A stretch of 64,000 nucleotides of DNA from Candidatus Doudnabacteria bacterium (lineage in GTDB: Bacteria > Patescibacteriota > Doudnabacteria > UBA920). The stretch covers positions 11,085-75,084 of the forward strand of contig JADZEH010000004.1 in the NCBI GenBank assembly GCA_020850635.1, read 5' to 3'. This document shows, one piece after another, positions 17,740 to 45,900 of this stretch. Every line of letters begins with the position of its first letter. Position 1 is the stretch's first letter. The position numbers and the translations under genes were made by a program. The notes below the pieces were generated by a model that saw nothing but the letters and a program-made list of their open reading frames with translations, was not told where the DNA came from and searched no databases.

Positions 17740-17781
17740 AGAACAGGCGGGCGAGTTTACTCGATCCGCGACCAATAAATA

Positions 17782-25800: not shown

Positions 25801-26047
25801 TCCACAACAAACTTCCCGCCGTTGGATCATCATAAATTTTAAATTCCATGGCGTAAGTTCCATTCGCCACATTCGTACTAGTACTAACTGCTGTGAGTTT
25901 ACCTTGGAAATTAATTAGCTTTGGGAAAGCAGCGTTCGCTGTTGACTGAAATGAGTACGCTGTTACAAAACCAACCACTATCAAAAGCATGCAGGTTAGC
26001 GCTGCGACGGTTTTAATTATCTGGTTGTGGTTTATTTTTAAACTCAT
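19886..26047 (-). CDS. Giant (2053 aa) secreted tail-fibre-like surface protein
   Basis: Signal peptide (...AYSFQSTANA), Gly/Thr/Ser-rich beta-repeats including GDGRVGIGTSSISAS...LLQVG, and a concanavalin/LamG-like jelly-roll (TISLWFKHSTTAPSGAIDTLF...ITRTNANDVDSWIDGQGM). Also a GHSLG nucleophile-elbow motif (VIYVGHSLGMAELHEH), a C-terminal DLAEYYYS...GQVVVID block and a Pro/Glu-rich acidic tail. Confidence 0.8.
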   Translation of the reverse strand: MSLKINHNQIIKTVAALTCMLLIVVGFVTAYSFQSTANAAFPKLINFQGKLTAVSTSTNVANGTYAMEFKIYDDPTAGSLLWTETYDQPSGSCAKPTVTSGVFNVKLGTCNAITFDVTGGALYLSVNFAPTGVAYDGEMSPRKQLVASAFAFNANNVVGDGRIDIAYAPGTTTNPGAKIDYSPSVSSSNNALQVSSGANVTGAALVVTQAGTGVGINLAGAGGSSRVINSTSSALILQTTTSGNINLDSAGGTLELQDNTNVTGALTISGVLQGGGATATTYSRLGSGTTNHSLGAADDLLVTDDLEVDGDVFFDGNLTVTGTCTGCGGGSQTPWAQDIDADNFSLLDFGPNLTSRAATTIGSANNGSGASGLVTLNSGTGTTSTGGVTIITGNASAGTAGNISLDVGTSTSGNGSILIGTAARTQTITIGNSTGGTITVGASSGSDLVLNDAHWSVSGAGAALFASADVSGVIQAGSSNVNLTDASGYVQHDSLVDCADTQILKWATGGGRWGCAADETGGGGSTLQSSYAADVDGTNATISLTTADDSLVFTNPSSAGTDSAFVVQVDQANTTAAVVGLDIVQQSNAANAVNVTANTIDSEVGLNITANALTSGNGLAIASSSTALTGALAKLTLSGSDAANTGSVLRIDNTGTASATTGLYIDHRATGTGNYALRIDDVSGDTTPFIVDGDGRVGIGTSSISASAATERLLQVGSEERRGNASVYGEIISKGSDDHTPLTGIKDVFVYDTSGDSDGGRWIDWATTDNLSWYAEALDDSASDTCVISSDDRCYKASFPRKALLVVTTDALYIFDAATNDMWMKFSQHSDGYALGADTNNDPSSVIALNGVIYVGANGSSAGGLYAIDFVNDRMWNYNGTSRAAAGVGISGRNSAVTYNVDSNVKLEISPTGTQAEWERVNDVHAVVMSRTQSAVTALGAATNTNPGYGKVFIGLATDSGVTIINPSGLVLNQYSDVTADDYNAVVISSRGFMYALNSTSDQLERWDTIDTDKASEINGTFSRRWDEARATGPALATSAFDVLTGKPDNLEIAERASNNLNTEDVIYVGHSLGMAELHEHTTQLLGWVKYYNSTRQTPMMMLAGINDMVLPMDDTSGTQAQDVSILNTDMAINGTPTLGVDGVQGKAIQFDNTDDFLCSDANQDNTCDLDTAFNMSTVGWTISLWFKHSTTAPSGAIDTLFEKCVTATPGQAIGCVVAYMNTSGQIVVANDDDATWTRPDGGGANSYDITATSTYAYNDNQWHNLIITRTNANDVDSWIDGQGMTLSTATGLTATFDGSQIVTIGASCVTTVTANCGAVTNAWDGAIDDVQYIVGTTTQATMTQLYVRRYFNIERPRATKRTITVANATSATSTSVTDTGESWFANDFAGSILEITGSDDADCVGLTRRISANTADTITFTPAVPGACTMDTSADFEIDPEALYGGSDAVGGIGITGETPLGEARQLCIGTNSGTDTGGVTCYNHQDGPSIVADVYHSQASQTDDDGTDWAGTDYDDIVSMDLSTRTFIIASEAHFTAITEDVRLGQGLDYVANQLYAIRQEIVLDGITAVGSTGIEVGFTGGADLAEYYYSTEALEPGQVVVIDKNGDGDDVVRSTRRYSGGILGVVSTQPGIILGLHAEDGFAIALTGRIPVKFSMENGPVKAGDYLTSASIPGYAMRATGAGPTIGKALTDSIPEQDMAVCSAMGEGLPETTKCGEVSIFVEHGNFSGLPIEQLMQEMRISVSAVGDLIEDSTEGLVEESGVESQALVGTGLDNDIDDSLTTDEKILVFLRHIKAEKVAAGQGVSAELFTDRVSAAFEVISPQVTTGGLRVEAIGKLGGIIDMLSDVTFFGRPYLNNDTAGFALVKAGHTSVDIKFDKEYIEQPVVVASIAGELDNEIIKTGDVEKIKEIQKLQDDLAIELFEQGIQVLVIKKNVFGFTILLNKPAPKDVPLSWIALAVKNPKIFESEGLAEEVEDDTELNPEVLGENTASEEQEPSEGNNEPANETAPPQEETLVEEESPPVEEPAPSVEEQPEQSPPLSEESLPSSE

Positions 26048-26059: not shown

Positions 26060-26266
26060 CTAGCTTTGAACCTCCGGTGCGGCCACAATAAAACCGCCTA
26101 AAAGCAAAATGGTGTCTTTTGCAAAACGGCGGTCACGACGATTACCAATGCGCACACCGGCAAGAACACCATCGCGTTCCCAATTGCGAATAGTGTTCGG
26201 ATGAACATTCAAGACTTCAGCAGCCTGACGTACAGTCAACAATAACGGTAAATTTCCTATGGACAT
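26060..26266 (-). CDS. Small excisionase-family helix-turn-helix DNA-binding protein
   Basis: LTVRQAAEVLNVHPNTIRNWERDGVLAGVRIGNRRDRRF matches the excisionase/MerR-superfamily HTH pattern. Lies 12 nt upstream of the giant gene. Confidence 0.7.
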   Translation of the reverse strand: MSIGNLPLLLTVRQAAEVLNVHPNTIRNWERDGVLAGVRIGNRRDRRFAKDTILLLGGFIVAAPEVQS

Positions 26267-26566: not shown

Positions 26567-27577
26567 TTACGAGCGGGTACGTTTAAGTATGAATAGAGCA
26601 ATAATTACTGCCGCTCCAAGTAGTAATCCCCCAACAAGCACGACCACGATCAAGATTGTGGTAATCAACTGCCATGGGAAGACCCAAAAGCTTAAAGCCT
26701 CTGTATAATGGCGGGCGGCATCATTGTTGACTGTAAACTGGAGAGTGGCGGTATAACGACCCAAAGCAAAATGATTCCACTGCCACTTTAAGGTTTCGAA
26801 GTAAGACAAATCATCAGGAGCATAAAAGATATCAGTGCTGTGTTGCTCTGTCCTGTCCCCTCCAGACGTAACCCAAGCCGTGGTATAACGGCGAATACTT
26901 CTTGGTAACACACTACCACCGGTACGATTAGCATCAATTACTTTACTAGTGAACCCAAATAAATTTCGGATCGTAATGTCCCCGACTGGCTTCACCCTAT
27001 CTTCACCGCTATTTTGAAAACGATATTCAAACTCAACTGGTAAAGAAGAAAACATCGACTTCTTCTTTGTTGTGTTAAAACTTAAAATTGTTTCCCCTTC
27101 TGTAAAGGCACCGTTCACTCGAAACAAAATTAAAGAACCAACCTGACTCTCAAGTGCGATGTCAACTTCTTCTTCAGAGCTTGGAACATTTTTAGTTGCC
27201 AGGATACCAGCAAAGTACCCACCTGGATCAACATCTCGTGGTACTGTAATTGTAAAATCCACCGTGAGAAATTCTTTCGGGGGAATCTCAACACTTGAAG
27301 GCGCGCTTACCCAACTTGGTAAACCATCACTCCCACGAACAAAAGATGGTTCACCAGTTTCATCTTTAGTTTCAAATTTAACAAACTTAATATAATAAGT
27401 TTGGGTTGTGGTTAATTCATTGAAAAGTTTAAACGACCCGCTCGCTTCACCACCAGGGTCAGCCGCAAGTTCAACTCGGATAGGAGATATCGTTAGAGCC
27501 TCAACCGACTGAGGCAAAAACCACCAACCGCCAAGAACAAACACTGCGCCAAATATTATACCAAGAAATCGTGTCAT
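26567..27577 (-). CDS. Secreted beta-sandwich protein with C-terminal TM anchor and basic tail (CscA/DUF916-DUF3324-like family, paralog 1)
   Basis: Signal peptide, conserved blocks RFQNSGEDRVKPVGDITIRNLFG, ILPRSIRRY..W, GRYTATL, FWVFPWQ, then TM plus KRTRS. Rho-independent-like hairpin downstream (about 26490-26540). Confidence 0.6.
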   Translation of the reverse strand: MTRFLGIIFGAVFVLGGWWFLPQSVEALTISPIRVELAADPGGEASGSFKLFNELTTTQTYYIKFVKFETKDETGEPSFVRGSDGLPSWVSAPSSVEIPPKEFLTVDFTITVPRDVDPGGYFAGILATKNVPSSEEEVDIALESQVGSLILFRVNGAFTEGETILSFNTTKKKSMFSSLPVEFEYRFQNSGEDRVKPVGDITIRNLFGFTSKVIDANRTGGSVLPRSIRRYTTAWVTSGGDRTEQHSTDIFYAPDDLSYFETLKWQWNHFALGRYTATLQFTVNNDAARHYTEALSFWVFPWQLITTILIVVVLVGGLLLGAAVIIALFILKRTRS

Positions 27578-27584
27578 AAATATA

Positions 27585-28526
27585 TTACGAATTACTATTG
27601 CGCGACAGCAACCAGCGATTGTATCGCTTGACTGCAGTATAGCCTAACAAGACCAGAAGTACGAGCACGAAAATACCGACAACAAGTCTTTGCCACGGGA
27701 CTATCCAAAAAACTGTTGTTGTACGAATTTCTAACTTTGGATTGCCATAAAACAATATAGCTGTCGCCGTATAGCGACCAAAGCGCCAGCCTGATTCCCA
27801 GGTGCTTTGGAAGTTACGTTGTGATTCTGGCAGAATAATATTTGCATCACGGTTTACTGGCACGCTGCCAACCTGACGTCCGAACATGTTCTCAATAACC
27901 ACATCGCCTTTTGGTTTGATATGAGCGTTGCCCTGGTTGAAGATTGAAGTAAAAAAATTAACGCTTGAATAATCTAAACTAGGCTCTGCACGAAAGTTTG
28001 TCACTGTTGCACTGTAATTCGCGTTACCTAATTTAGCGATGACCAACACCCCAGCTTTTTGAGTAACTGTAACCGATGTCTCTGCTAGAACCGTGGGACG
28101 GTATGAAAACAACAATCCACCATAATGAGAACCCGGCTCAGCGTCTACTGGTGGTTCAATTGCAAATTGAACTTCCGTTTGGGCGCCTGGCTCAATCGTA
28201 AAATCTGGTTGATTAATAATACGAATCCACGAGCTTAAAGAAAAACGAGGATCGCTTTCCTCTCCGCTATTTAAAAAAACAGTCTCCCCTGTTTCTCCGT
28301 TTGGCACAAAATCATTGATACTAATTTCAATTGGCAGCGGAAGATTTGTTGTATTAGTTAGTGTAATAGTATGGAGTTGCACGTCCCCTGCTTCCAGCTC
28401 AGTTTCGATTAAGAAAGGACTCAAGGCTAAGCCCTGAACCTCTAAACGTTGTTCGCTATTCTGCGCAAATAATTGCAAAGGAAAAATGAACAGAACCAAA
28501 GCCACTATTAAAGTCTTTAAGTGCAT
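27585..28526 (-). CDS. CscA/DUF916-like secreted protein with C-terminal TM anchor (paralog 2)
   Basis: Same architecture and motifs (GDVVIENMFG, ILPESQRNF..W, GRYTATA, FWIVPWQ, TM, KRYNRWLLSRNSNS). Confidence 0.6.
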   Translation of the reverse strand: MHLKTLIVALVLFIFPLQLFAQNSEQRLEVQGLALSPFLIETELEAGDVQLHTITLTNTTNLPLPIEISINDFVPNGETGETVFLNSGEESDPRFSLSSWIRIINQPDFTIEPGAQTEVQFAIEPPVDAEPGSHYGGLLFSYRPTVLAETSVTVTQKAGVLVIAKLGNANYSATVTNFRAEPSLDYSSVNFFTSIFNQGNAHIKPKGDVVIENMFGRQVGSVPVNRDANIILPESQRNFQSTWESGWRFGRYTATAILFYGNPKLEIRTTTVFWIVPWQRLVVGIFVLVLLVLLGYTAVKRYNRWLLSRNSNS

Positions 28527-28527
28527 A

Positions 28528-29616
28528 TTAGTATTGCGCTGAAGTAATGTAAGTTAAAATATTTTGATACGATCCTGACTCCTGCAAGCTCCCAATCTCA
28601 AGTTTGTAGACCAAAGTTGTAGCTTCACTTGTTGCTGGTCCTGTATTACACGCAACCTCAGATGGCGTTGTTGTGATAGCCGCATAAGTATTATTCGCCG
28701 AGAAACGATTAGTACTACCAGTGCATAGAACACTGTCTGTTGTATGATATCCAAACGCGCCAGTAGTTACCGCAACTGGCCAAACATCAGGGCTAGCGTT
28801 GGTACCAGAAACACTATCGATATCAGCACCAGCAGATGTCCTCAATTCGCCATCATGCTGAAGAGTGGTTGTATACCCACTCACACCGTTTGTGCTCACT
28901 GTAACCGTATGAGCCGCTACAGCTGGGGTACTCACAACCAAGCTCCCATAAGTAATGGCGTTACTTGTTGTAGTTATAGTTGTAGTTTCGCCAGCCACAC
29001 TTGTACTCGATGCAACTCCTGAAAACGTTATAGCCAAACTTGGGCTACTTGTACTCGCACTAGCTTCAGAAGAAAAACCTGTCTCAGTGTCTGCTCCATG
29101 ACGAGCTTTGACTTTAATTTTGTAAGTCGTACTTGGAGTTAACCCAACAATTCGTTCACCACTACCGCTTCCCCAGTTAGTAAAAGTTTGCCAGGCTTCC
29201 GTCGTGGAAACAGTATCATCTGTTTGAACATAATTGGTAGTTACAAAGTTATCAGATGAAATCGCAATAGCATACTCCGTATCACTACTGTTACCACCAA
29301 TGGCAATGACAAAATCAAGTGAGTTATACAAAGTCCCACCTGTGTTGGTTAAGGTTGGCGCTCCAGGAACTCCCGGATAGGCCGGCCAAATAAACCCGAG
29401 TAAGGAACGAAAGTTAGTTGAACTTGAACCACTATCACTTACTGCCCCAATAGAATCCACCGAGCGATAGTTAGCCGAAGCACTGTTTTCGCCACCTCCG
29501 TCAATGGTCGCATCTTCAATACGATAGTTGCTTCCAGTTAAAGTTTCAGCCAAAACTGGAGTCGCCAAAACTGAGAAGACTAAAGATAAAATTGTAATTT
29601 TTTGTATCGAGTTCAT
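28528..29616 (-). CDS. Secreted protein with FN3-like middle and a conserved about 150-aa C-terminal domain (WxL-like candidate; paralog B1)
   Basis: Signal peptide MNSIQKITILSLVFSVLATPVLA; the C-terminus ...GSYQNILTYITSAQY matches that of 30943-32034. The start is moved to the second ATG (29616) because an extended -10 (TGGTATAAT, 29634-29642) lies 3 nt from the track's first ATG (29631). Confidence 0.55.
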   Translation of the reverse strand: MNSIQKITILSLVFSVLATPVLAETLTGSNYRIEDATIDGGGENSASANYRSVDSIGAVSDSGSSSTNFRSLLGFIWPAYPGVPGAPTLTNTGGTLYNSLDFVIAIGGNSSDTEYAIAISSDNFVTTNYVQTDDTVSTTEAWQTFTNWGSGSGERIVGLTPSTTYKIKVKARHGADTETGFSSEASASTSSPSLAITFSGVASSTSVAGETTTITTTSNAITYGSLVVSTPAVAAHTVTVSTNGVSGYTTTLQHDGELRTSAGADIDSVSGTNASPDVWPVAVTTGAFGYHTTDSVLCTGSTNRFSANNTYAAITTTPSEVACNTGPATSEATTLVYKLEIGSLQESGSYQNILTYITSAQY

Positions 29617-29633
29617 ATGGTTTTTATACATTC

Positions 29634-29642
29634 ATTATACCA
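29634..29642 (-). promoter_or_regulatory. Extended -10 element TGGTATAAT(GAAT) upstream of B1
   Basis: Reverse complement of 29634-29642 is TGGTATAAT. The same TGnTATAATGAAT occurs upstream of the CAP gene (39625-39633). Confidence 0.4.
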
Positions 29643-29656
29643 TATAGCCTAAGTTA

Positions 29657-29728
29657 GCAGGTGGTTGATGTTGTACTAAAACCAGTCGCTCCGCTCCGAT
29701 GGTTTTCTTAACAACATCAACCACCTGC
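29657..29728. repeat. 72-nt perfect-stem hairpin element (copy 1): 18-bp outer stem GCAGGTGGTTGATGTTGT/ACAACATCAACCACCTGC enclosing a conserved core with inner stem AAAACCA/TGGTTTT and loop GTCGCTCCGCTCCGA
   Basis: A 49-nt core is identical to the reverse complement of 39701-39749. The outer stems differ between copies yet each pairs perfectly. Confidence 0.6.
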
Positions 29729-29843
29729 ACCAATAGGCATTCAAAGGTAAAGACGATTCCCTTGTTGTTAAGAAAAGTATTTGGTCCCCTCTACTTTTCG
29801 TACAATAAGGGAATCGGATTTATCAAAAAAACCGCCCGGTTTC

Positions 29844-30920
29844 TTAGAGCGGTTCTTTGTCTTTCTTAGTTCGTCTTTTTTTAGGAGATTTGTTATTAGT
29901 CGCCTGATTGATAATGTAACGGTTGTATCGCTTAATACTGAAACGTCCAACAATAAAGGCGACAATTAATCCTGAAATTACAACAGTTATCAATTGCCAT
30001 GGAATGACGTAGAACGTGTAGCTTTTTGAGTCCGACTTTAATTCTTTGGTTCCAAAGACAACACTTAGCGATGCTTTGTATTTTCCAAAAGCAAAATTGT
30101 GCCATTGATACTTTACTTGATCCCAAAATCCAGGACCCGCTGGGCTTGGAATTTCCGGATCGGCTCCCTGTTGCAAGTCTCCCCAGCTACTAGCCCAAAC
30201 AGTTTCAAAACGCCTAATGCTTTTTGGCAAAATACTTCCATCAACAGGGTTGGCTGGCAGAATCTTTGTCGTACGTCCGAACATGTTCGTAATCAAAACA
30301 TCACCAACTGGTCTTAAATGATCTTCACCAACATTTTGAAAACGATAGTAAAAATAAACCGGGAGAGCTGTAAAAAAACGCTTTTTGTCTTTAGTCGCAA
30401 ATTCTAAGATATTAGCGTTTTGAACAAAATCACCATTTACTCGAAGTAACAACAGGGTTCCTAACTTTGAACTAATGCCCACCTGACCACCCTGGTCAGC
30501 ATTGGGAGGGGTTGTTTCTAAAAACATCGCAGCGAAATGACCACCAGGGTCAGCGTTCTCCGGCACATTAACTTTAATAGGAATTTCCAAAGTCTCACCA
30601 GGGCCAATAGTAATGACTTCCGCAACTTCAACCCAAACCGCTAAATCTTCTTTACGATTTGTAAACCGAGGACTACCACTTTCATCCTGAGATTCGAAAT
30701 TTTGTAAATTAGTATAAAAAGTTCGAGATTGTTTTTCCTCATTACTAATTTTCAAAATTTCAGTTACCGACTCTCCAGGATTAGCGTTAATTTCTATTCT
30801 GGGGGTTGTGGTTATGGCTTGTACGGGTCGGACAAAAGCCCCAAAAATTAAAACGAAAACCGCTCCGACAAGTAACGCGGCGCGGCTATATCTTAATTTG
30901 AAAATTTCTGGAAAATTCAT
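29844..30920 (-). CDS. CscA/DUF916-like secreted protein with C-terminal TM anchor and Lys-rich tail (paralog 3)
   Basis: Motifs RFQNVGEDHLRPVGDVLITNMFG, ILPKSIRRFETVW, GKYKASL, FYVIPWQ, TM, then KRYNRYIINQATNNKSPKKRRTKKDKEPL. Confidence 0.6.
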   Translation of the reverse strand: MNFPEIFKLRYSRAALLVGAVFVLIFGAFVRPVQAITTTPRIEINANPGESVTEILKISNEEKQSRTFYTNLQNFESQDESGSPRFTNRKEDLAVWVEVAEVITIGPGETLEIPIKVNVPENADPGGHFAAMFLETTPPNADQGGQVGISSKLGTLLLLRVNGDFVQNANILEFATKDKKRFFTALPVYFYYRFQNVGEDHLRPVGDVLITNMFGRTTKILPANPVDGSILPKSIRRFETVWASSWGDLQQGADPEIPSPAGPGFWDQVKYQWHNFAFGKYKASLSVVFGTKELKSDSKSYTFYVIPWQLITVVISGLIVAFIVGRFSIKRYNRYIINQATNNKSPKKRRTKKDKEPL

Positions 30921-30942
30921 TTAGTAAACAATCCCAAACAAT

Positions 30943-32034
30943 TTAAAATGTACCTGTGGCGATGTATGTGATGTTCGTACTATAACTACCAGCCTCTGTG
31001 TTTCCCGCGATGTTGGCGAGATAAAAAGCACTTACAGTTTCAGTATTAGTTGGTGTTGTTCGTGAAATAATCGTCGTGGTCGTGCCAGCAACAAAGGCCC
31101 AATCTCGGTTTCCTGGTGTAGAGTTGTGATCATAACCAGTTGCCACGGTAGAAGAGCCATTCGTGGAAATACCTAAACCAAACTCTTCTGCAGACTGAGT
31201 ACCATCAGCATCGTTAGTAATAGCGGCAACATCAATAGTATTACCACCACTGGTTAAAGTGGCTCCATTGTAACTTAGGACATACCCACTAGCGGCGTTA
31301 GTAGCAACAGCTAAAGTATGAGCGGCGGCAGAGTCTGTACCAGAACCATTAGTATCACCAGTAGCAAATCGGGCTGCTGTTGAACTAAGTGAGCCAAACC
31401 CGATTGTTGTATCAGAAACGCTAAAGGTAATTGTAGGGTCAACTGTAGCTGTAACGTTAACCTGATCTTCTGTAATAATATCTACAGCAATTGTCCCTGT
31501 GTCACCAAAGCTACCACTAATGGCAATCGTATCGTCATCATCAATTGCGCCATTACTAATTTGGTTTGTGCCAGTTGCCTGACTTACAGCATTTGTACCA
31601 ATACGGAAACGGACGCAACGCCCAGCCGTGACTGTACCAGTACCTGAAGTTAGAGTTACAGTTGTTGCGCTGTCCCCATCTGCTCCCCAAGTCGCACCAG
31701 AGGGAGAAGCGGCCAAAGTTCTTTCTGTAAATGATGCTGTACTACAGTTACTTGAGTCACCTTCAGCAAAGTCAATATCAGTATGAACTATATTGGTAAC
31801 GTTTGTGAAGTCAGCTGAAAAAGTTAAAATAATAGTTTGACCCGCGGTTAATCCGGTAGGTGTGACAAACTTGATTTCATGATTAGCTGCCTCGCTCGCC
31901 TTTAAACGAGACATGACGTCAGATAAACTTGTCACTGAAGCGGCTTGTGCAACAGGTACTCCCTGAAAAACAACGCTAGCAACCAATGCCACCATCGCAA
32001 TCTTACTATATATACGCTTCGTTTTTTGTTTCAT
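30943..32034 (-). CDS. Secreted protein sharing the C-terminal domain of 28528-29616 (WxL-like candidate; paralog B2)
   Basis: Signal peptide ...VPVAQA; the C-terminal block AHTLAVATNAASGY...AGSYSTNITYIATGTF aligns with AHTVTVSTNGVSGY...SGSYQNILTYITSAQY of B1. Confidence 0.55.
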   Translation of the reverse strand: MKQKTKRIYSKIAMVALVASVVFQGVPVAQAASVTSLSDVMSRLKASEAANHEIKFVTPTGLTAGQTIILTFSADFTNVTNIVHTDIDFAEGDSSNCSTASFTERTLAASPSGATWGADGDSATTVTLTSGTGTVTAGRCVRFRIGTNAVSQATGTNQISNGAIDDDDTIAISGSFGDTGTIAVDIITEDQVNVTATVDPTITFSVSDTTIGFGSLSSTAARFATGDTNGSGTDSAAAHTLAVATNAASGYVLSYNGATLTSGGNTIDVAAITNDADGTQSAEEFGLGISTNGSSTVATGYDHNSTPGNRDWAFVAGTTTTIISRTTPTNTETVSAFYLANIAGNTEAGSYSTNITYIATGTF

Positions 32035-32105: not shown

Positions 32106-35100
32106 TTACTCCACCAAGCTAACTTCAGTTCCAGATTCTACTGAATCTTGAACCTCGGGTTCTTCTTGGGTTTCCTCTGGTTCAGTAACAGGCATTTGTT
32201 CATCGGGAGATTCTTCGCTTACAACGCCGGCAACAGACCCTTCGTCAATTACTGGTTCCGGGTCCTCTGATAATGAATCCGATTCTGACGACTGCTGTCC
32301 AGCAATAACTAACTTGATAGTGCTAGTATTACCATTTGACACAGTCAGTTTTGCATCCTGTCCTGCAAACGCATGCCAGTTAAATTCAACTGCTTCGTTT
32401 TGATCGTCGCTAATCTTAATGGTAAAGCCAGATGAGTCTTCATCAACCACCGTGTAGCGGAAACTATTATCCAATGCGGCTTCACCACGAGGACTAATCG
32501 TGACGATTGGCTGATACTCATACGGCTTAGTAAAGTTTACTCTCACCTCTGTTTCCCCAGAAAGAATTTTTACCTGACCTACTGAGTCTGAGGTTAAATA
32601 CAAATGACCCTTGATGACAATCGGTGTATCAATGTTTCCACCTAAATTGCCTTGTAAACTATTTACTGAAACTTGTAAGCTCTCAATTCTGTCTTGTTGT
32701 TCGTGAATCGCATTAACTAAGATCGGAGTGAAACCAACATAGTTCACAGATTTTAATCCAGTCTTTGGATCAATCTTAACTAGCTCAGGTGAAATCACTT
32801 CAACCTCTTGTGCCAGAAAACCAATTCTCAAAGCATCATCAGTTTGAGACTTCCAACGGAAATTAACCCCCCTAAAATTAAGAACTTTCTCTAAGGCACT
32901 TTCAATTGTTGCTACATCCTCTTTAAGACGTTGGTCAGAGGTACACACCAAAGCGGTACTCGTTGGATCAATATCGCATGACCCATCAGAATCAGTAAAA
33001 CGAGCCACCACACCTGCCGCACCCAACACCACATGAAGCGGATAACTAGGAGTGGTTATGCCGATACCGACATTTCCCGCGCTAAATATTGCAGCATAAT
33101 TATCTGTACCACCTGAAGCACTTACAGACAAACCCACATTGACTGCAGTAGTTCCCGTATGTGTATTAGCGACTTGAAGACCATATGTGGTTTGGCTCGC
33201 GCCATTATTGGAACCCGAGGTAGCAATATTTAAGACCGTTTGATTAGTTAAAGCCTTGGAGGTACCAGAAATTTGTAAGTCAACTAGCTTGCCAGAAGTT
33301 AAGTTGGATGACGCAGCATACAATCCAGTACCAGTGGTTAAAGAGTTAACATTTAGTGCTAAGGCAGAAGCGGTTGTAACTTGAGTCGTATTTGCAGAAG
33401 TAACCGACATTGTTCCTGAACTTTGAATATATCCCTTGACCGCAGCAATTGCACCAGAGGAGTTGACTTGGAATAAGTCACCACTTCCAACGGTCAGCAA
33501 CGCGGTAGGTGAAGCATCTCCAATCCCGACATTGCCACCCATAAACTGAGCAGCGTAATTATTTGTCGCACCGGTTTGAGCGTTTACAGTTAGACCAAAA
33601 CTATTAGTTGCTGTCGAAACAGCACCGGCTGAAATCAAAATACCATGGGTATTCGTAATAGTTGCGTTCGTACTTTTGACTGGAGCACCTGTTATTCCTA
33701 AAGTCGCCGCGTTGGTTAATGTGGAAGCTCCGTTAAATGCATAAGTCGGTGCATTGATTAATACTGCGCGTTGTGTCGCTAAGCTACCAGTACTAAAAGT
33801 TACAGTTCTGTTGAGTGCAAAATTTATATCCGCGGCTTCGATTGTAGAATCTAAGTTAACATGTGCTGGCCCTGTAACGGCGAGTAAATTTGGGGAGCCA
33901 GAACCAGATGGATCGGGGGCCATAATTAATCCGCCAGTTTCGTTGACAGTAGCCAAAGCAGAACCGCCTGAATTTTGCCACTCCTGCAAATTTGCCGACT
34001 GACCACCACTTGAAGCCGATACAGCAATATTATATTTGTCAGACAAATACTTTTCTACGGATTCTTTGTCGGCAATACTTAACGCTGAGCTATAGACTAT
34101 AATTTCCGCGATATCTCCCTCCCAATATTGTGATACTCCTAAGTAGTGATAAGTATCCCCAATCCAATTAAAAGAACTATTTGCAGTTCCCACGATTGTT
34201 ATAATACTATAAGTATTTGCCGGTTTTTGAATATTAAGAACTGAGGTATAAGTACCATTTGTATAACCCTGACCACTAGCAATGTCGCCGTTTGTACCTC
34301 CTAATGAATTAATCAAATCAGTACCAGTTTCACCAAAATAATCAAAACCGGTGCTCTCTCCAACTGGTGACTCCCCAGCAGGCGAACTCCCATCAACATG
34401 TCTGATTACCATTATCAGAGTCCTAGAATTAGTCACTACTGAATCCATAGCCAAAAAATCATCGGTACCATCGAAGCGAACCACAGGCTTGCCGTTAGTT
34501 CCACTAGCAATATAAAGAGGCTGACTTGCTCCAGTTCCTTGAGTAGCATCATTACCCGACCCGCTTGAATTAGTCCAGCTTGCAACAGGGTCATTATTAT
34601 TTAAAGACAAACTATCAGCCTTTAACCACACCACTAAACCACTGATATCATCAGGTTCAATTCCACTACCTAAAGGCGAACCTTTAACAATTATGCCTTT
34701 AGTATTCGCTGTGCCTGTTACAACTTTCAGCCTTGCATCAGGTATGGTAGTGCCTATACCCACGCTTCCATTTTCAAAGATGGCAGCATAGTTATTAGTT
34801 CCACCTGAAGCAGAAGCATATAAACCGACATTAGTTGAGTCTGTCCCTGTATGAGTATTAGTAATATATCCACTGTAAGTTGTTTGGGTGGAAGTAGCAT
34901 TGGCTCCAGATAAACTAAGAGATAAAAGTTTTTGTGTGTTGCTTGCAGCAGCGGTTGTGTTGGCTGATAAAGCTAAACCTGTCCCACCTGCTAAAGTGTC
35001 CCAGGCCCAATTCTGCTGATAATTGGTATTATCAATAGAATTTGTTGCTGTGGCGGCAGTCAACCCTGACAACGAGCCACCGCCTACACCGTCACAAGCC

Positions 35101-37670
35101 TGCCATTCGAAATCGCCAGTAGTTGATTCGTAAGTTAAACATTCTTCATCAACAGAAGAGTCCACTGCTTTTAAATCTGCTTCAGTAACTTTCTCATCAA
35201 CAATCGCGGTGGCTCCAGTACTATCAATCACAATATCTCCACTCATTGCTACGGGATTATAGTTTGTACCATCCGCCACTAGAATAAATCCAGAGGTATT
35301 TGTGCCCATAAATAAATCATCGCCCGAAATAGTAAGATCGCCATCTAGTTGGACGTTACCAACACTGGTGATAAGAACGCGTTCCGTACCAGCCATACTA
35401 ATAGATAAATCATCTGATCCACCAAGCACAGCAATCTGCACTTTCTCAACACCAGCCTTATAAATGTAATACCCAGCTTGTGAAGCAGCGTCTCCATCAA
35501 CCTGAATTAATGCATGCCCAGCAGCATTAGTGTACGACATACCTACTGCCGCGGTTCCCACAACGCTCAGACCTGCAAAAGTTGGCAATGAAGTCGTTGT
35601 TAAATTTTGTCCTGTATTAAAAGTTAATTGCGAATCGCTAATCGAGTCGGCAGCAACAGAAATGCTAACAGCAGCGGTTTCTGATCCTGAACCACTTACA
35701 GAAATCTGGCTGTCGCCAGCAATAGTCGCAACATAGTTGCCAGCAGTATCAGTACCCAGCGCTACACTATTGGATTGAATCGTAGTTGCACCAGTATTAT
35801 CGATTGCAATATCACCAGACACCGACACAAACACAGGAACGCCACTGACATTACCAATAAGCAACTGTCCGCTCGTTGGCGCAGCCGTTACCTGCACTGC
35901 CGAAGTTCCATTCCCGTAAACCAAACCATTTAAAGAGAGAGACGACGTTCCTGTTCCACCATTCGAAACAGCAAGTACACCAGTCACATCGGTAGCTAAG
36001 TTAGTTGTACCACCACCAATAGCTCCCCAAGTTGCACCGTTATAGACATTAAATGCATCTGTTGTTGAGTTGTATACTAAAAGACCTGTCGCTGGGCTAC
36101 TAATCGCATCGCGTTCGACAGTCGTCATCCGTGGTGCTAAAAACCCACGTGTGGTTGAATTTGCTTGTAAGATTGCAGAAGCATCCAAAGTGCCTTCACC
36201 AATGAGCAGTTCACTTGAATCAAAACTACTACCTGAGGATACCGAGCTTGAACCAGCAGCACCACGTGCTCCCGTTTCACCAGTTGCCCCCTGTGGACCT
36301 TGTTCGCCCGTGTCCCCTTTGTCACCTTCTAAAAAGTCGAAAAGACCTAAGGCAATAAATCGATTCATCACTCTTGTTACTGCAGTCTCAATAGCACTTT
36401 CACCAAAGTTTACTGTTGTTGTCGGGGTCGGTGGTGTTATTGGTGTTGAGACAATAGGAACTTCTTCTGGCACGTAGACTATCGTAGGTGTTGGCTCTGG
36501 CTCAGAGCAAACAACTAACCAACACAAAACTTTCTCCCACCAAGGAATTTCGGTACTCTCTCCCAAAACACGACCACTATATTGGCCAGTCTCCGCGTTT
36601 GCTATTTTTGTTTGTGCTGAAAAATCATCAACTGTTAATTGAGGAGAAAATCTGTCTTGTAAATATTTACCATTAGTAGAAAAATTTTCAAGCAAGGGAC
36701 TCTGTAGCATGGCAACAGTTACATTGTCTGCTTTTTTAGCCACGATCTCAGCCAGCATCAAAGTCTTGTTAAACAATGTACTTGCACTGACTGCTACACT
36801 ACTATCAACACTCGCAACTATAAACTGACCTTCATTAAATATTTGATTAACAGAAACAGTAACTCTATCTTGCGAAGATACAAGATCATTTACAACAAAA
36901 TTTGCTAAAACAATATCAGCGTTATCGAGTATGTTATTACTAAATTTTTTAACATCTTCTATTGTCACCTTTGGCACACTCACTGTTGGAACAATATTAT
37001 CAAAAGCACGATGATTCTCTAAACTTTGACTAGCAAGGGTTTGCCCTGTAGTTATAAACTGGACAGACCCTGAGAACTGAGCGAGGACCTTGCCATCACT
37101 AACCCAAGTTGCGACTACCGAATCAACAATTCCAGCAACACGATCAAACGCTCCACTAATACTATTTGGTAAATTGCCAATATCGACCAATACCTGCTCA
37201 TACGACAGCTTGATCAAACTTCCTAAAGTTGAACTATTACTCCCTACTTCGGAAACTAATTCTTGTGAATATTGTTTGGAGTATTTCTTTGTGTTCCGGA
37301 TACCGATTGAAGCATGATCAGCAACGAACTGTTCTGCCTTTGATGTTATATCCTGTGCATCATAATAAAGATTTGCAAATTTTCGCTCATGCCACTCACT
37401 AAATTTAGTGAAGGTTACATAGCCTTCATAAATTGATTCTAGAATAAACTTGCTAGTTTTCGCATCGTAATAATTTAGAAATGCCGAGGTGTCTCCAATT
37501 ATGCCATAGGCTTGATTTTGCCAAGAAGAAACTATTGTCCCTGAATTATTAATTGAGGAATACTCTATATTGGATGGTTGGCTGGCGTATACTCTGTTTG
37601 AACTTAGTGACGCACATAATATAACAACAACCAAGAGGCTATAGACAAGTTTATTTATAACTTTCATCAT
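32106..37670 (-). CDS. Giant (1854 aa) secreted phage-tail-fibre-like protein: collagen-like GXY run, tail-fibre repeats, LamG-like domain, C-terminal S74-type intramolecular chaperone domain, acidic tail
   Basis: Signal peptide ...SSNRVYA; GDKGDTGEQGPQGATGETGARGAAG (collagen triplets); repeats GSVGIGTTIPDARLKVV / GNVGIGDASPTALLTVG / GNVGIGITTPSYPLHVV. LamG-like region LVVWLKADSL...YWEGDIAEIIVYSSAL; endosialidase-chaperone motif SDQRLKEDV...RIGFLAQEVEVISPELV. Confidence 0.85.
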   Translation of the reverse strand: MMKVINKLVYSLLVVVILCASLSSNRVYASQPSNIEYSSINNSGTIVSSWQNQAYGIIGDTSAFLNYYDAKTSKFILESIYEGYVTFTKFSEWHERKFANLYYDAQDITSKAEQFVADHASIGIRNTKKYSKQYSQELVSEVGSNSSTLGSLIKLSYEQVLVDIGNLPNSISGAFDRVAGIVDSVVATWVSDGKVLAQFSGSVQFITTGQTLASQSLENHRAFDNIVPTVSVPKVTIEDVKKFSNNILDNADIVLANFVVNDLVSSQDRVTVSVNQIFNEGQFIVASVDSSVAVSASTLFNKTLMLAEIVAKKADNVTVAMLQSPLLENFSTNGKYLQDRFSPQLTVDDFSAQTKIANAETGQYSGRVLGESTEIPWWEKVLCWLVVCSEPEPTPTIVYVPEEVPIVSTPITPPTPTTTVNFGESAIETAVTRVMNRFIALGLFDFLEGDKGDTGEQGPQGATGETGARGAAGSSSVSSGSSFDSSELLIGEGTLDASAILQANSTTRGFLAPRMTTVERDAISSPATGLLVYNSTTDAFNVYNGATWGAIGGGTTNLATDVTGVLAVSNGGTGTSSLSLNGLVYGNGTSAVQVTAAPTSGQLLIGNVSGVPVFVSVSGDIAIDNTGATTIQSNSVALGTDTAGNYVATIAGDSQISVSGSGSETAAVSISVAADSISDSQLTFNTGQNLTTTSLPTFAGLSVVGTAAVGMSYTNAAGHALIQVDGDAASQAGYYIYKAGVEKVQIAVLGGSDDLSISMAGTERVLITSVGNVQLDGDLTISGDDLFMGTNTSGFILVADGTNYNPVAMSGDIVIDSTGATAIVDEKVTEADLKAVDSSVDEECLTYESTTGDFEWQACDGVGGGSLSGLTAATATNSIDNTNYQQNWAWDTLAGGTGLALSANTTAAASNTQKLLSLSLSGANATSTQTTYSGYITNTHTGTDSTNVGLYASASGGTNNYAAIFENGSVGIGTTIPDARLKVVTGTANTKGIIVKGSPLGSGIEPDDISGLVVWLKADSLSLNNNDPVASWTNSSGSGNDATQGTGASQPLYIASGTNGKPVVRFDGTDDFLAMDSVVTNSRTLIMVIRHVDGSSPAGESPVGESTGFDYFGETGTDLINSLGGTNGDIASGQGYTNGTYTSVLNIQKPANTYSIITIVGTANSSFNWIGDTYHYLGVSQYWEGDIAEIIVYSSALSIADKESVEKYLSDKYNIAVSASSGGQSANLQEWQNSGGSALATVNETGGLIMAPDPSGSGSPNLLAVTGPAHVNLDSTIEAADINFALNRTVTFSTGSLATQRAVLINAPTYAFNGASTLTNAATLGITGAPVKSTNATITNTHGILISAGAVSTATNSFGLTVNAQTGATNNYAAQFMGGNVGIGDASPTALLTVGSGDLFQVNSSGAIAAVKGYIQSSGTMSVTSANTTQVTTASALALNVNSLTTGTGLYAASSNLTSGKLVDLQISGTSKALTNQTVLNIATSGSNNGASQTTYGLQVANTHTGTTAVNVGLSVSASGGTDNYAAIFSAGNVGIGITTPSYPLHVVLGAAGVVARFTDSDGSCDIDPTSTALVCTSDQRLKEDVATIESALEKVLNFRGVNFRWKSQTDDALRIGFLAQEVEVISPELVKIDPKTGLKSVNYVGFTPILVNAIHEQQDRIESLQVSVNSLQGNLGGNIDTPIVIKGHLYLTSDSVGQVKILSGETEVRVNFTKPYEYQPIVTISPRGEAALDNSFRYTVVDEDSSGFTIKISDDQNEAVEFNWHAFAGQDAKLTVSNGNTSTIKLVIAGQQSSESDSLSEDPEPVIDEGSVAGVVSEESPDEQMPVTEPEETQEEPEVQDSVESGTEVSLVE

Positions 37671-37918
37671 GCCAGCCTCCTTTCAGATTTTTCTAAAGAA
37701 GCTAGAATGCGACGATGTTTTTGTTCTTGAGACTTTACATAAGACAAAACGGCCTCACGTGTTGTGAGCCAGTCTCGAGATATTTTAATCGCTTTCAGTT
37801 TGCCTTTACGAGCAAGTAAGCTCAGATATTCCTGTGAGTACGGTGTATTTGTCGCCGCTTCACCAATGGAAATCAAAGAACCAGATGCCAAAAAACGGCT
37901 CTTTTCCTGTTCGGACAT
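37667..37918 (-). CDS. Small excisionase-family HTH DNA-binding protein, translationally coupled (ATGA overlap) to the giant gene
   Basis: ISIGEAATNTPYSQEYLSLLARKGKLKAIKISRDWLTTREAV matches the same HTH family as 26060-26266. Its stop overlaps the start of 32106-37670 by 4 nt. Confidence 0.7.
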   Translation of the reverse strand: MSEQEKSRFLASGSLISIGEAATNTPYSQEYLSLLARKGKLKAIKISRDWLTTREAVLSYVKSQEQKHRRILASLEKSERRLA

Positions 37919-42974: not shown

Positions 42975-45900
42975 CTAGGTTTGGCACCAGGCAAACGCGT
43001 TCCGGAACATACGCAGCCAGGGGCCGTTTTCATGAGATCGCCAATCGTATGGTGACCAAGGCGACTGCCATGGCAAGAAGCATCGCTCCGGGTGCGGCAT
43101 CATGGCCAAGTGTCGACCATCAGCCGAACACAGAGCAGCGATACCTTGAGGACTCCCATTCGGATTGAACGGATAGTCGCAAGTGATGTCGCCGTCATGA
43201 TCAAGATACCGAATCGGAGCCAGGTAGCCCTGGATGATCCCCTGTAGAACCTCTGGCTGAGGAACATACAAGCGACCTTCACCATGCGCAACCCACACGC
43301 CCAACCGAGAACCCTCCATCCCTTGAAGGAAGATAGACGGACTAGGCAGAATTTCAACAGTAGAAAACCGCGACTCAAACCGTCCAGACTTGTTCGCAAT
43401 GAAACGCGGCTGTGAAGAGTCGGGAAGGTCCGCACCAGGGACCCGTCCGAGCAAAGCCATGAACTGGCAGCCGTTGCAGACACCGAGAGAAAACGTGTCG
43501 AGACGGGCGTAGAAACGATCGAACTGATCACGGACGTGGTCGTTGAATTTGACCATGCCCGCCCAGCCCTTACCCGCATCAAGCACATCACCAAACGAAA
43601 ACCCTCCCGGAAAAACGAGGCCAGAAAAATCTTCGAGACTGTAACCCTCGAGCAAATCGCTCATGGTCAAGTCGTAGACCTCGAAACCTACCATGTAAAG
43701 CACGGCAACCATTTCACGGTCACCGTTAGTTCCCGGAGCGCGCAACACCGCAACCTTCGGCCTTGGCCGAAGAGACACAATAACTGCCGAACGATCTGGA
43801 TCGAAAGTCAAACGTCGCGGCGGGTCACTGAGGAGGCTACGAACCGCTTCCCGTTCAGCTGCGACACACTCAGGGTTAGCCTGTAAAGCGTCAAGCTGGA
43901 AGCTCGTCTCTTCCCAGACCGCACGAAGCGCGGTCATGGTATTGTTGAGCACCGGGATGCTGTTGTGATAGATGGTCACCTCGTTGGTATCAACCGTCGT
44001 CGCCACGTAGTGAACCTTGAGACCGGCCTGCCGGAACCAATAGCTCACTGTGTTTGGGTCAGGTGTCTCGATCAGGAGTCCAACTTCTTCGTTAAACCAA
44101 GCTTCAATCGGATCATGAGCCGTTTTGAAATGGCCTATGAATCCAAAATTGCTGGCGAATGACATCTCAAGGAGAGCCGTGATCAAACCGCCATCACTGC
44201 GATCATGGACCGCCGTGATGAGACCTTCCCCGATCATGTCCTGCACACACTGGAACAGGAACTTCAGATCCTTCGCGCTTGTGACATCGGGAGCCTCATC
44301 GCCAAGCTGACCCAAACTCTGGGCCAGCGCCGAACCACCAAGACGACAAGCATCACCCAACTCAACGAGCAAAACCCCGTTGAGAGCACCCTTGAACTCG
44401 GGAGTGACTTTGGCCGTTACGTCGGCCATTGTCGCGTAACCCGCGATCACGAGTGTCCCTGGAGCCTTGCTCTTTTCCGACGTGCCATCAGGAGCGGTCA
44501 TTTTCGCGGCCATCGATGAACTGTCCTTACCACCGTCACCGGCGATACCGAGAGTCATCATAATGTCGCTCATGGCTTCCGCAGCCTGGTAAAGTCGAAC
44601 ACCCTCACCAGGTTCCTTCGCGGCCCACATCCAGTTCACCGAGCACTTGATGTGTTCGATATCAGTGATGCAAGCACCCGCCATGTTGAGAAGCATCTCT
44701 GCCACAGACATGCGAGCCATGGCCGCAGGATTGATGAGCCCAATAGTGGGACGTTCGCCGAGACTCATCGCCGTACCGACCGTGTCGAAATGGCTCTGAG
44801 CCATCACGGCATAGTCAGAAAGTGGCAAATGATTCGGTCCGACGCACTGTTGTTGGGCCACAAGCCCACCCACACTACGATCGAGTTTCGTCGTCAAGAA
44901 CCGTTTCGAACCAACCGCAGGTTGGCGAAGCACGCCATCGAGCGCCGATTCGAAAGTTAGATCAGACGGCAGCACAAGCGGAGTGAGATCGAGTGGAATG
45001 TCCTCGAACTCGAAGGTCTTGCGCGGAGGATTCCCGAACAGTTCCTTGAGTGGAAGATTGACCGGCGTCGAGTTGTCAGCACTGTCATGAACAATGAACA
45101 ACCCATCTCCGGTAACCTCGCCAACACAAACACACGGAGCACCTTCCCGTCGGGAAATTTCCTCAAGCAGGCCAAAGCTCTCGGAGTGAATCAGAAACGC
45201 GTTGCGCTCCTGAGATTCGTTACCAAGATACTCCAGAACCGAAAGAGAACTGTCTCCTAAAGGGATGGCGCGGAGCTGGATCTTCGCCCCCGCAGGGTCG
45301 ACTATTTCGGGAAGCGCGTTCGCGTCCCCTCCAGCACCGAGATCGTGAGCGGAAATGATCGGGTTGCGATCCAGAAGTTCGCAGCAAGCTCGAATCACTC
45401 GATTCACGCGGTTCTCCATTTCGGGATTACCACGTTGCACCGAATTGAAATCGAGCTCGACCGTATTCTCGCCATGAGTCATGGAACTTGCAGCTCCACC
45501 ACCTACACCGATCCGGTACGCAGGTCCACCAAGCTGTACGACAAGCATTTCAGCTTCGGGCGAACCCTTGCTGATGTGTTCGTCGACCATCTGGCCAAGA
45601 CCACACGTGTAAAGAATCGGTTTACGATAACTACGGAGGTCCTTGTCACCAACGCGAAGCTCGTACGTTCGCAGGGATCCGATGACCCCCGCCTCGCCGA
45701 AACAGTTCGCGTAATGGGAAGCTCCGTTGCTCCCCTCGATGAGAACATCGAGCGGAGTTGGTAGATTGGGCGTATCACGATAGCCATGATCAATCTCGCC
45801 GGGAATGGAATACCCAGGGATATTGAGCTGCCCAACGCAGTACATCAGACCACCAACACCCACGAGTCCACCGCGACCTACCACCTGGTTGTCGCGAATC

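Follow-up and report, generated by a model that had tools for sequence, protein, structure and literature searches.

The closest characterised analogue of the giant protein described here is found in the mosaic adhesive trimer (MAT) fibres of Bdellovibrio. These fibres are a precedent for a cell-encoded, Sec-exported fibre with an S74 domain, and one of them, Bd3182, cleaves itself at S782, a reaction blocked by the S782A substitution (PMC10769870). Catalytic dyads have been proven in the endosialidase endoNF (S911/K916) and in MyRF (S587/K592), and endoNF cleavage also needs an arginine in the upstream beta-helix (PMC8326128). Our literature searches returned no description of S74 domains or intramolecular chaperones in Saccharibacteria/Patescibacteria and none of S74 combined with an H-type lectin; the Southlakia Tn-seq paper and its supplements make no mention of such proteins. 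Here we analyse a fibre gene from a stretch of 64,000 nucleotides (the window) whose source, judged by its relatives, appears to be Patescibacteria, probably Saccharibacteria. We read its product as a cell-surface fibre of that ultrasmall bacterium, built from modules of phage receptor-binding proteins and carrying a self-cleaving S74 domain, and put the probability of this reading at about 0.6. A large part of bacterial diversity belongs to the Patescibacteria (the Candidate Phyla Radiation), which live attached to other microbes. To our knowledge, the molecules that mediate this attachment are largely unknown, and the surface biology of the group almost entirely so.

An earlier note, made from the letters of this DNA, had proposed a giant protein of 1,854 residues with a signal peptide, and both proposals stand. 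The open reading frame is uninterrupted (32106..37670, (-) strand), shares its start position with orthologues P0001 and P0002, and is judged real (Table 1). Its product begins with MMKVINK, followed by 15 hydrophobic residues and VYA/SQ, which by inspection obeys the -3/-1 rule. Residues 1-27 form the sole hydrophobic segment of the whole protein (Kyte-Doolittle >1.6), with none found after residue 27. The putative signal peptide, judged by eye, may be cleaved or may act as an anchor. This Sec-type N-terminus makes an exported trimeric fibre the natural reading.

Table 1. Features of the fibre gene and of one adjoining gene, in window positions (aa, residues of the fibre protein).
Feature	Position	Strand	Basis
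Predicted Sec-type signal peptide, aa 1-29 (MMKVINK, hydrophobic core, VYA/SQ)	37584..37670	(-)	Hydropathy and -3/-1 rule by inspection
N-terminal domain of unknown fold, aa 30-385, ending GRVLGES...WWEKVLCWLVVC (Cys383/Cys388)	36516..37583	(-)	Conservation
Pro/Thr-rich linker, aa 386-420, then ESAIETAVTRVMNRFIALGLFDFLE leading into the collagen run, to aa 448	36327..36515	(-)	Composition
Collagen-like run, GDKGDTGEQGPQGATGETGARGAAG(SS), 8-9 GXY triplets, aa 449-475	36246..36326	(-)	Shuffling; Pfam match sub-threshold
PTL_trimer-like module, aa 496-548 (STTRGFLAPRMTTVERDAI...YNGATW)	36027..36185	(-)	Alignment to P0010
Gly/Ser/Thr-rich fibre shaft with internal repeats, aa 549-990	34701..36026	(-)	Segment self-BLAST, PHROG
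LamG/ConA-like jelly-roll module, aa 994-1225 (FDGTDDFL ... GDIAEIIVYSSALS)	33996..34691	(-)	Homologue profiles
Fibre shaft, repeat copies 2 and 3, aa 1226-1577	32940..33995	(-)	Segment self-BLAST, PHROG
Peptidase_S74 intramolecular chaperone, aa 1578-1674	32649..32939	(-)	Pfam, PDB 6f45 alignment, model
Predicted scissile Ser1578	32937..32939	(-)	Dyad partner Lys1583 at 32922..32924
Post-chaperone H-type-lectin-like beta-sandwich (predicted), aa 1675-1790 (core ~aa 1691-1790)	32301..32648	(-)	Model and family
Acidic tail, Glu/Ser/Pro-rich, aa 1791-1854, probably disordered	32109..32300	(-)	Composition
83-aa HTH-like gene	37667..37918	(-)	Stop overlaps fibre gene start by 4 nt

The N-terminal half combines conserved modules. 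Its first domain has no Pfam match and is kept in P0001 (79%), in P0002 (61%) and partly in P0003, and the segment just before the collagen run is conserved in P0001-P0003 and P0005. The run itself had been called a genuine collagen GXY segment, a description that the data bear out: 20,000 shuffles of the protein gave runs of at most 7 GXY triplets and never 8, and P0001, P0002, P0003 and P0005 carry runs of 6-10 triplets in the same place. Its Pfam Collagen match (PF01391) stays below threshold (E 0.005, 17 bits versus a cut-off of 27.2), the run being too short to satisfy the model. Farther along, residues 496-548 are 60% identical to a part of P0010 with a precomputed PF26696 (PTL_trimer) annotation, a label also borne by P0001-P0003. 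A Pfam search of the window protein returned no PF26696 match; the family is known here only via its homologues' precomputed labels, and residues 476-707 as a whole have no Pfam match. A PDB sequence search with the PTL_trimer/shaft segment was likewise empty, and no paper that we found mentions PF26696.

The shaft carries tail-fibre repeats, as first proposed. Segment-wise self-BLAST resolved a ~90-aa repeat in three copies (aa 889-977, ending in NNYAAIFENGSVGIGTT; aa 1315-1389; aa 1453-1548), whereas self-BLAST of the whole protein reported no internal repeats. Matches to PHROG families cover residues 894-1224 (phrog_10356) and 1340-1674 (phrog_1980, tail fibre). The shaft also contains a Cys844/Cys859 pair, and a Cys1565/Cys1576 hairpin immediately precedes the predicted cleavage site; with Cys383/Cys388, these three close pairs are compatible with an extracytoplasmic location.

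Between the shaft segments lies a LamG/ConA-like module, which homologues bring into view. The region's own match to Laminin_G_3 (PF13385) is partial, spanning profile positions 109-146, and weak (E 0.006, 17.2 bits versus a cut-off of 27.6), and the segment alone found no match among PDB sequences. Its 327 homologues mostly exceed 90% query coverage. In an alignment of the window segment with 33 of them, 28 of the 34 sequences match PF13385 (best E 3e-13), and the family profile matches 4qvs (E 6.6e-7), the PilC lectin module 7oa7, the sialidase L lectin domain and pentraxins. The LamG lectin fold of the earlier note is thus supported only through homologues, and it does not belong to the core of the protein. 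Residues 1-859 and 1415-1854 are 77-79% identical to P0001, while residues 860-1414, which include the module, are unrelated; orthologues lack LamG and carry unrelated sequence in place of this central stretch.

We found that the S74 domain is genuine and that its Ser-Lys dyad is intact. Pfam PF13884 (Peptidase_S74) matches residues 1578-1632 over the full model (positions 1-58; E 1.4e-14, 54.5 bits versus a cut-off of 22). Within the motif CTSDQRLK, Ser1578 and Lys1583 lie five residues apart (SDxxxK), the same spacing as in endoNF and MyRF (PMC8326128), which we counted towards S74 identity. No counterpart of the upstream endoNF arginine was identified in the window protein. By sequence, the phage S16 tail fibre chaperone (PDB 6f45) aligns over residues 1576-1671. 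The earlier note had proposed structure prediction of this region: the AlphaFold model has a pLDDT of ~90 across the chaperone and a long helix at residues 1647-1674, and in Foldseek it resembles the MyRF ICA domain (7dc3; E 2e-4, TMt 0.64), among its best PDB matches, and the endoNF chaperone (3gw6; probability 0.99). By extrapolation from these homologues, the protein would be a trimer and its cleavage trimer-dependent.

This chaperone is not the end of the protein. Although 222 residues lie past the Pfam match, the 6f45 alignment and the model helix carry the chaperone to about residue 1674, so the ~200 further residues first counted shrink to ~180, some 42 having been part of the chaperone. 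What remains is a folded beta-sandwich and an acidic tail. That cleavage would release a C-terminal fragment, as had been suggested, is true of every S74 protein; the unusual part is that a folded domain and a tail ride along.

The folded domain, first taken for an Ig-like one, instead resembles an H-type lectin. Its model (AlphaFold, pLDDT 86) matches Helix pomatia agglutinin, SLL-2 and discoidin II with a Foldseek probability of 1.0, and the same value was obtained for the C-terminal domains of the Pam1, phi297 and Sf6 tailspikes and the R2 pyocin fibre, and for viral tail fibres whose annotation includes an H-type lectin domain. Pfam H_lectin (PF09458) scores 16-17 bits on the domain itself versus a cut-off of 24, and sub-threshold H_lectin matches that span the full profile occur in 16 of 27 family members (best E 3e-4). 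A profile of the domain searched against PDB sequences gave chance-level matches only. Eleven columns are invariant in the family, including D1695, G1698, Y1717, P1721, G1748-F1749 and W1765-H1766. On the model, residues ~1691-1790 are an H-type-lectin-like/tailspike C-terminal beta-sandwich for which ligand binding is predicted. The tail that follows is rich in Glu, Asp and Pro, as described earlier (64 aa with 21 D+E, 0 K+R and 6 P). Equivalent tails in 148 relatives have a median length of 90 aa and a mean net charge of -0.2 per residue; only one contains a transmembrane-like stretch, and they share no terminal motif.

We surmise the following course of assembly. The ~192 kDa chain would be exported by Sec via its N-terminal signal peptide, and three chains would be put in register from the C-terminal end, where the S74 chaperone (aa 1578-1674) would trimerise through its terminal helix. 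The H-type lectin fold naturally trimerises, and the lectin-like domain would probably aid registration. The C-terminal trimer would then nucleate folding of the Gly/Ser/Thr-rich shaft, the PTL_trimer module and the short collagen run. In a correctly folded trimer, the Ser1578/Lys1583 dyad is expected to cut before Ser1578, a testable prediction that would yield a mature fibre of ~159 kDa (aa 30-1577) and a ~30 kDa fragment comprising chaperone, lectin-like domain and acidic tail. The LamG module would be the likeliest specificity-determining ligand binder, for example of host-cell glycans in an epibiotic lifestyle. Several observations speak against this account. No counterpart of the upstream endoNF arginine was identified, it would seem a waste to place a lectin domain of the receptor-binding type beyond the cut site only to discard it, the lectin-like domain and tail also occur behind non-S74 modules, and the protein's own Pfam scores for Collagen, Laminin_G_3 and H_lectin all fall under the curated thresholds.

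In a different assignment of roles, S74 only trimerises, or the cleaved fragment stays bound, and the lectin-like domain is the distal receptor-binding tip. Mature tailspikes and pyocin fibres end in a domain of the same fold, the strong conservation of the domain (11 invariant columns, W1765-H1766 among them) suggests a function of its own, and it also occurs after non-S74 modules, where cleavage is not expected. We nevertheless consider a distal tip unlikely. The S-x4-K motif persists in 88 of the 98 relatives in which S74 directly precedes the post-chaperone domain, which argues for selection on catalysis, and characterised S74 proteins all separate the part C-terminal to the serine (PMC10769870, PMC8326128).

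Far from being confined to this protein, the arrangement proved to be a recurrent cassette. We found the post-chaperone domain in 901 protein clusters, usually directly after S74 and always before an acidic disordered tail. Hundreds of uncharacterised relatives have the same C-terminal cassette, which is shared by many otherwise unrelated giant proteins of Patescibacteria behind upstream modules of three kinds, S74, a 'DLAEYY' type and an 'NPDYVF' type. At least two of the modules that precede the domain and tail are not S74, including that of giant protein 1 of the window, which has no family match; the cassette therefore has a role independent of S74 cleavage. All nine hits of a genome scan with a 7-sequence alignment were Saccharibacteria/Patescibacteria metagenome-assembled genomes, but this alignment samples close relatives only, so 'Patescibacteria only' is a lower bound on the distribution. 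By these sequence comparisons, the H-type-lectin-like domain and acidic tail form a previously unannotated C-terminal module.

A shared ending after varied upstream modules is a pattern typical of sorting or anchoring signals. The cassette might thus hold the nascent trimer on wall or surface glycans until S74 autoproteolysis frees or activates the fibre, a use for which MyRF offers a precedent, with its internal S74 domain as release switch, cleavage there detaching the functional trimer from its anchor; both giant proteins of the locus carry the cassette. We regard such an anchor as distinctly improbable, however: the tails have no transmembrane segment, LPXTG-like motif or other conserved terminal motif, we identified neither a sortase-like gene nor a dedicated secretion gene adjoining the fibre gene, and cleavage of the signal peptide, if it occurs, would leave nothing evident to anchor the released fibre. 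More broadly, and speculatively, S74, the H-type-lectin-like trimer and the acidic tail could together make a cassette, specific to Patescibacteria, for the assembly and release of giant surface fibres, a proposal to which we give rather low odds. Domain and tail may dock the last-exported end of the three chains on the cell's own wall or on a host glycan, and autoproteolysis, as checkpoint or switch, may then either free the fibre or let go a soluble 30 kDa lectin trimer that has a role of its own where epibiont and host meet. If true, bacteria would have, outside the cell, an equivalent of the MyRF release switch, and the cassette would be a sorting module of a new type.

The genomic surroundings are those of a cellular gene. 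The window carries PilB/PilT/PilC/PilM, RNase Y, an ABC transporter and PurL, and the fibre gene is flanked by genes for a CAP-domain protein and WxL-interacting-like surface proteins, by type IV pilus genes and by housekeeping genes. Gene order is kept in Saccharibacteria contigs, L001 and L002 among them, and in these two the 83-aa HTH-like gene also holds the orthologous position; its 4-nt stop/start overlap with the fibre gene suggests that the two are probably co-transcribed. Some relatives have the motif of this small gene as a fused N-terminal part. That the protein is instead a phage or prophage tail fibre is brought to mind by its PHROG tail-fibre families and by the S74 segment, which matches tail-fibre genes in 715 phage records. 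We rejected this origin as barely credible given the cellular neighbours, among which no phage structural, packaging or integrase genes came to light, the conserved gene order, the Sec signal peptide seen by inspection and the post-chaperone domain, for which neither 50,697 phage genomes nor IMG/VR contigs gave a match.

None of the individual domains is of a new kind; the surprise, a moderate one, lies in their arrangement and spread. For a cellular surface fibre, an exchangeable central binding cassette, LamG in this case, would fit host-range diversification, and the unannotated C-terminal module offers a way to catalogue such fibres in metagenomes.

Set beside known systems, the locus shares parts with each. 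H-type lectins (Helix pomatia agglutinin 2CCV, SLL-2, discoidin II) and the C-terminal beta-sandwiches of tailspikes (Pam1, phi297, Sf6) and R-pyocins are trimer-forming and used for glycan or receptor binding, and they have the fold predicted for residues ~1691-1790. The likeness rests on fold, sequence similarity being below the Pfam threshold, and their domain stays in the mature protein rather than beyond a self-cleavage site. Phage chaperones (endosialidase endoNF/K1F 3GW6; T5 pb1; S16 gp37 6F45) have the Pfam family, the Ser-x4-Lys motif, the fold and the placement where a Gly-rich trimeric shaft ends in common with the window protein; they are the last domain and are discarded alone, whereas the window protein is non-phage, predicted to be Sec-exported and 180 residues longer. 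In MyRF, a eukaryotic membrane-bound transcription factor (7DC3) and the best structural match, the S74/ICA domain is also internal, so that cleavage separates two functional parts. There, S74 precedes a transmembrane helix and cleavage sets free a cytosolic trimer that binds DNA; the window protein has no transmembrane segment downstream and is predicted to be extracytoplasmic throughout. A MyRF-like membrane tether was rejected on that count and on the tails of relatives, of which 1 of 148 is transmembrane-like.

The S74 subgroup of MAT fibres in Bdellovibrio bacteriovorus comes closest. MATs end in S74, as in this subgroup, or in another tip, whereas the window protein continues past its S74 with the H-type-lectin-like domain and acidic tail, contains collagen triplets, a PTL_trimer module and an internal LamG, and belongs to the phylum Patescibacteria. 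After the signal peptide, MATs have a ~130-aa beta-rich domain, and the window protein has 356 residues without a family match. Common to both are a cellular genome, a bacterium living on other bacteria, a signal peptide (predicted here), a long fibre of phage-like modules (trimeric in MATs and presumably here), a mosaic binding region open to exchange, and an SDxxxK-bearing S74 domain, whose self-cleavage was shown in Bd3182. A Saccharibacteria-like genome would thus encode, like the predator Bdellovibrio, a fibre in the style of phage receptor-binding proteins with a chaperone of the self-cleaving type.

The earlier note had placed an S74-type chaperone near the C-terminus of giant protein 2, and this identification proved correct. 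Peptidase_S74 (S74) of Pfam covers aa 1578-1632 over the whole model (E 1.4e-14), and in a PDB sequence search aa 1576-1671 aligned with 6f45, the long-tail-fibre chaperone of phage S16. Within CTSDQRLK (aa 1576-1583), Ser1578 and Lys1583 form a predicted dyad with the same Ser-x4-Lys spacing as the proven dyads of endoNF (S911/K916) and MyRF (S587/K592) (PMC8326128). An AlphaFold model of aa 1540-1810 reached a pLDDT of ~90 over the chaperone, which closes with a long terminal helix (aa 1647-1674). In the PDB, the model came closest to 7dc3, the MyRF ICA domain (E 2e-4, TMt 0.64), and to 3gw6, the chaperone of endosialidase (probability 0.99), so the structural similarity to S74/IMC domains on which the claim depended was found. 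The chaperone ends near aa 1674, and the Pfam model spans just its first 58 residues.

Some 180 residues of giant protein 2 remain beyond the chaperone. The extension claimed previously therefore exists, but it is shorter than the proposed 200 residues since the chaperone runs to ~aa 1674. Its folded part had been called Ig-like; we find it better described as a trimer-forming, H-type-lectin-like beta-sandwich, based on its fold matches and on sub-threshold Pfam H_lectin matches in 16 of 27 family members, each across the whole profile. A model of this post-chaperone domain from a 27-sequence alignment (pLDDT 86) matched the Helix pomatia and Helix aspersa agglutinins, SLL-2 and discoidin II, all H-type lectins, with probability 1.0. 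At that same probability it matched the C-terminal domains of R-pyocin fibres and of three tailspikes (Pam1, phi297 and Sf6). Among viral models, it matched many tail-fibre and tailspike C-termini, several of them labelled 'H-type lectin domain'.

When aa 1676-1795 were searched with phmmer against 1.84 billion representative proteins, 901 clusters were returned at E<=0.001, 267 of them at E<=1e-10. Among the best 150 of the 901, the domain nearly always lies near the C-terminus, and complete proteins are large (up to 5,397 aa). Of 122 representatives whose upstream sequence was long enough, 87 have an S74-like domain directly N-terminal of it according to local HMMs, and the S-x4-K motif is retained in 88 of 98 such pairs. 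The domain always precedes a disordered tail (26-229 aa, median 90), which in relatives is rich in Pro, Glu, Ser, Thr and Ala and has a mean net charge of -0.2 per residue. One rival reading makes the C-terminal cassette (S74, post-chaperone domain and acidic tail) an anchoring and release device; relatives' tails share no terminal motif, and just 1 of 148 has a TM-like stretch. When one genome per species was scanned with the post-chaperone domain, nine loci came up, all in Candidatus Saccharibacteria or Patescibacteria MAGs, and S74 stood directly upstream of the domain in 10 of 12 proteins of the loci examined. The domain family had no sequence-level match in 50,697 phage genomes or in IMG/VR contigs, unlike the S74 segment, which matches 715 phage records.

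The lectin-like domain and tail have a role of their own, as is shown by their presence at the end of proteins with a different upstream module. In the C-terminal region (aa ~1560-2053) of giant protein 1, the second giant of the window, the same domain and acidic tail close the chain (BLAST E 6e-9 against giant protein 2), and S74 is replaced by a module 'GADLAEYYYS...GVVSTQPGIILG...GRIPVKF..ENGPVKAGDYLTSASIPGYAMRA' that has no match in Pfam. At least nine unrelated representatives have this module ahead of the domain, and a third upstream type reads '...YVNPDYVFAxYF...HLPGV'. Such a non-S74 module may serve trimerisation or autoprocessing in another way. Post-S74 extensions are of more than one kind, since in the giant homologues P0004 and P0007 a different, repeat-rich region of 400-500 residues comes after an internal S74 and ends ...FNWLIIN or ...FDWLIIN. 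Fibres with the S74 and lectin-like cassette are found as tandem paralogues in other Patescibacteria genomes: locus L007 (3601..9453) has two adjacent genes of ~970 aa, and in locus L012 (3489..21297) a CAP-domain gene is followed by three consecutive giant genes.

The rest of giant protein 2 resembles an exported fibre. Its start coincides with those of homologues P0001 (79% identity) and P0002 (61%), and its N-terminus (MMKVINK, 15 hydrophobic residues, then VYA|SQ), the sole hydrophobic stretch of the protein, has the look of a signal peptide for Sec. No Pfam family matched the N-terminal 356 aa. Three close cysteine pairs (383/388, 844/859 and 1565/1576) fit an extracytoplasmic protein; the last, which several relatives retain, flanks a hairpin that immediately precedes the predicted scissile Ser. 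The claimed collagen segment is real and conserved, because 20,000 shuffles of the protein never reached 8 GXY triplets (maximum 7) and runs of 6-10 triplets occupy the equivalent position in four homologues (P0001, P0002, P0003 and P0005); being too short, the run stays below the Pfam Collagen threshold (E 0.005). Tail-fibre repeats were also borne out: the shaft holds three copies of a ~90-aa repeat, each ending ...NNYAAxFxxGxVGIG, and PHROG tail-fibre families match the protein. Precomputed Pfam annotation of homologues makes aa 496-548 equivalent to PF26696 'PTL_trimer'.

The LamG-like region (aa 994-1225) gave a weak, partial Laminin_G_3 match of its own. It has 327 homologues, mostly stand-alone proteins of ~240 aa aligned at >90% coverage. 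PF13385 is matched by 28 of 34 aligned sequences (the window segment and 33 homologues; best E 3e-13), and the family profile matches solved LamG/ConA-like modules, namely the S-layer protein 4qvs (E 6.6e-7), the PilC minor-pilin lectin module, pentraxins and the lectin domain of sialidase L. Transitive homology thus supports the LamG assignment. Giant protein 2 and P0001 share 77-79% identity over aa 1-859 and 1415-1854; aa 860-1414, LamG included, are unrelated in P0001, P0002, P0003 and P0005. By these alignments, the protein is built of conserved ends and an exchangeable centre, and the leading candidate for the part that sets ligand specificity is the LamG cassette of this centre.

If it behaves like phage fibres and like the mosaic adhesive trimer (MAT) fibres of Bdellovibrio, giant protein 2 would most likely be exported by Sec, whereupon the S74 chaperone would nucleate a C-terminal trimer, probably assisted by the trimer-forming lectin-like domain, the shaft would fold, and cleavage ahead of Ser1578 would yield a fibre of ~159 kDa and a fragment of ~30 kDa. 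Alternatively, the fragment could remain attached as the fibre tip.

All genes adjoining giant protein 2 in the window are cellular, and the fibre locus is closely followed, on its own strand, by a type IV pilus set. Three of the five genes between the giants resemble WxL-interacting proteins (WxLIP_PGBD/Fn3-like, with a C-terminal transmembrane helix); the other two encode secreted proteins rich in Thr, Ser and Ala, whose C-termini read ...TYIATGTF and ...TYITSAQY. This layout resembles WxL surface-protein loci of Firmicutes and is kept in the homologous loci L001 and L002. Contigs with P0002 keep the order CAP, small helix-turn-helix (HTH) gene, giant 2, five genes, HTH gene, giant 1, and P0003 belongs to an array in which a CAP gene heads three giant genes. 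In P0039, P0063 and a 2,327-aa protein of L012, the HTH motif is fused to the giant's own N-terminus, joining a DNA-binding domain to an exported fibre. The window also holds side-by-side tRNA-Ile(GAT) and tRNA-Ala(TGC) genes, a pair usual in rRNA operon spacers, on the strand opposite to all neighbouring genes. The PurL-like ORF lies in a stretch whose G+C reaches 50-55%, while most of the window has 40-43%, which may be a sign of horizontal acquisition.

Features of the fibre locus and its surroundings (window coordinates unless marked aa)
Feature	Position	Strand	Remarks
Giant protein 2 ORF	32106..37670	-	1854 aa, uninterrupted
Collagen-like run GDKGDTGEQGPQGATGETGARGAAG(SS)	aa 449-475		in giant protein 2; 8-9 GXY triplets
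Small HTH gene	37667..37918	-	83 aa; overlaps giant 2 start by 4 nt
CAP-domain protein			directly upstream of giant protein 2
Five surface-protein genes	26567..32034	-	between the giants
Small HTH gene	26060..26266	-	68 aa; immediately precedes giant 1
Giant protein 1	19886..26047	-	second giant gene
tRNA-Ile(GAT), tRNA-Ala(TGC)	17376..17857	+	
Type IV pilus gene set	10030..17037	-	PilC (T2SSF), PilT-like and PilB-like ATPases, two small unannotated genes, PilM
PurL-like (FGAM synthase) ORF	42975..47117	-	
Neighbours			PilM, PilB, PilT-like ATPase, PilC
Neighbours			Wzy-like protein, sugar transferase
Neighbours			RNase Y, ABC transporter, PurL-like protein, ZIP transporter

Each single domain of giant protein 2 is already known in kind, and Bdellovibrio provides known examples of S74 fibres encoded by a cell. 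MAT fibres combine a signal peptide with an SDxxxK S74 domain, and one of them, Bd3182, self-cleaves at S782, cleavage being stopped by S782A (PMC10769870); they are a direct precedent for giant protein 2. Our literature searches found no annotation or description of the S74, lectin-like and acidic-tail cassette. It is this cassette that sets giant protein 2 apart from the phage and MAT systems, together with its wide and apparently Patescibacteria-centred distribution.
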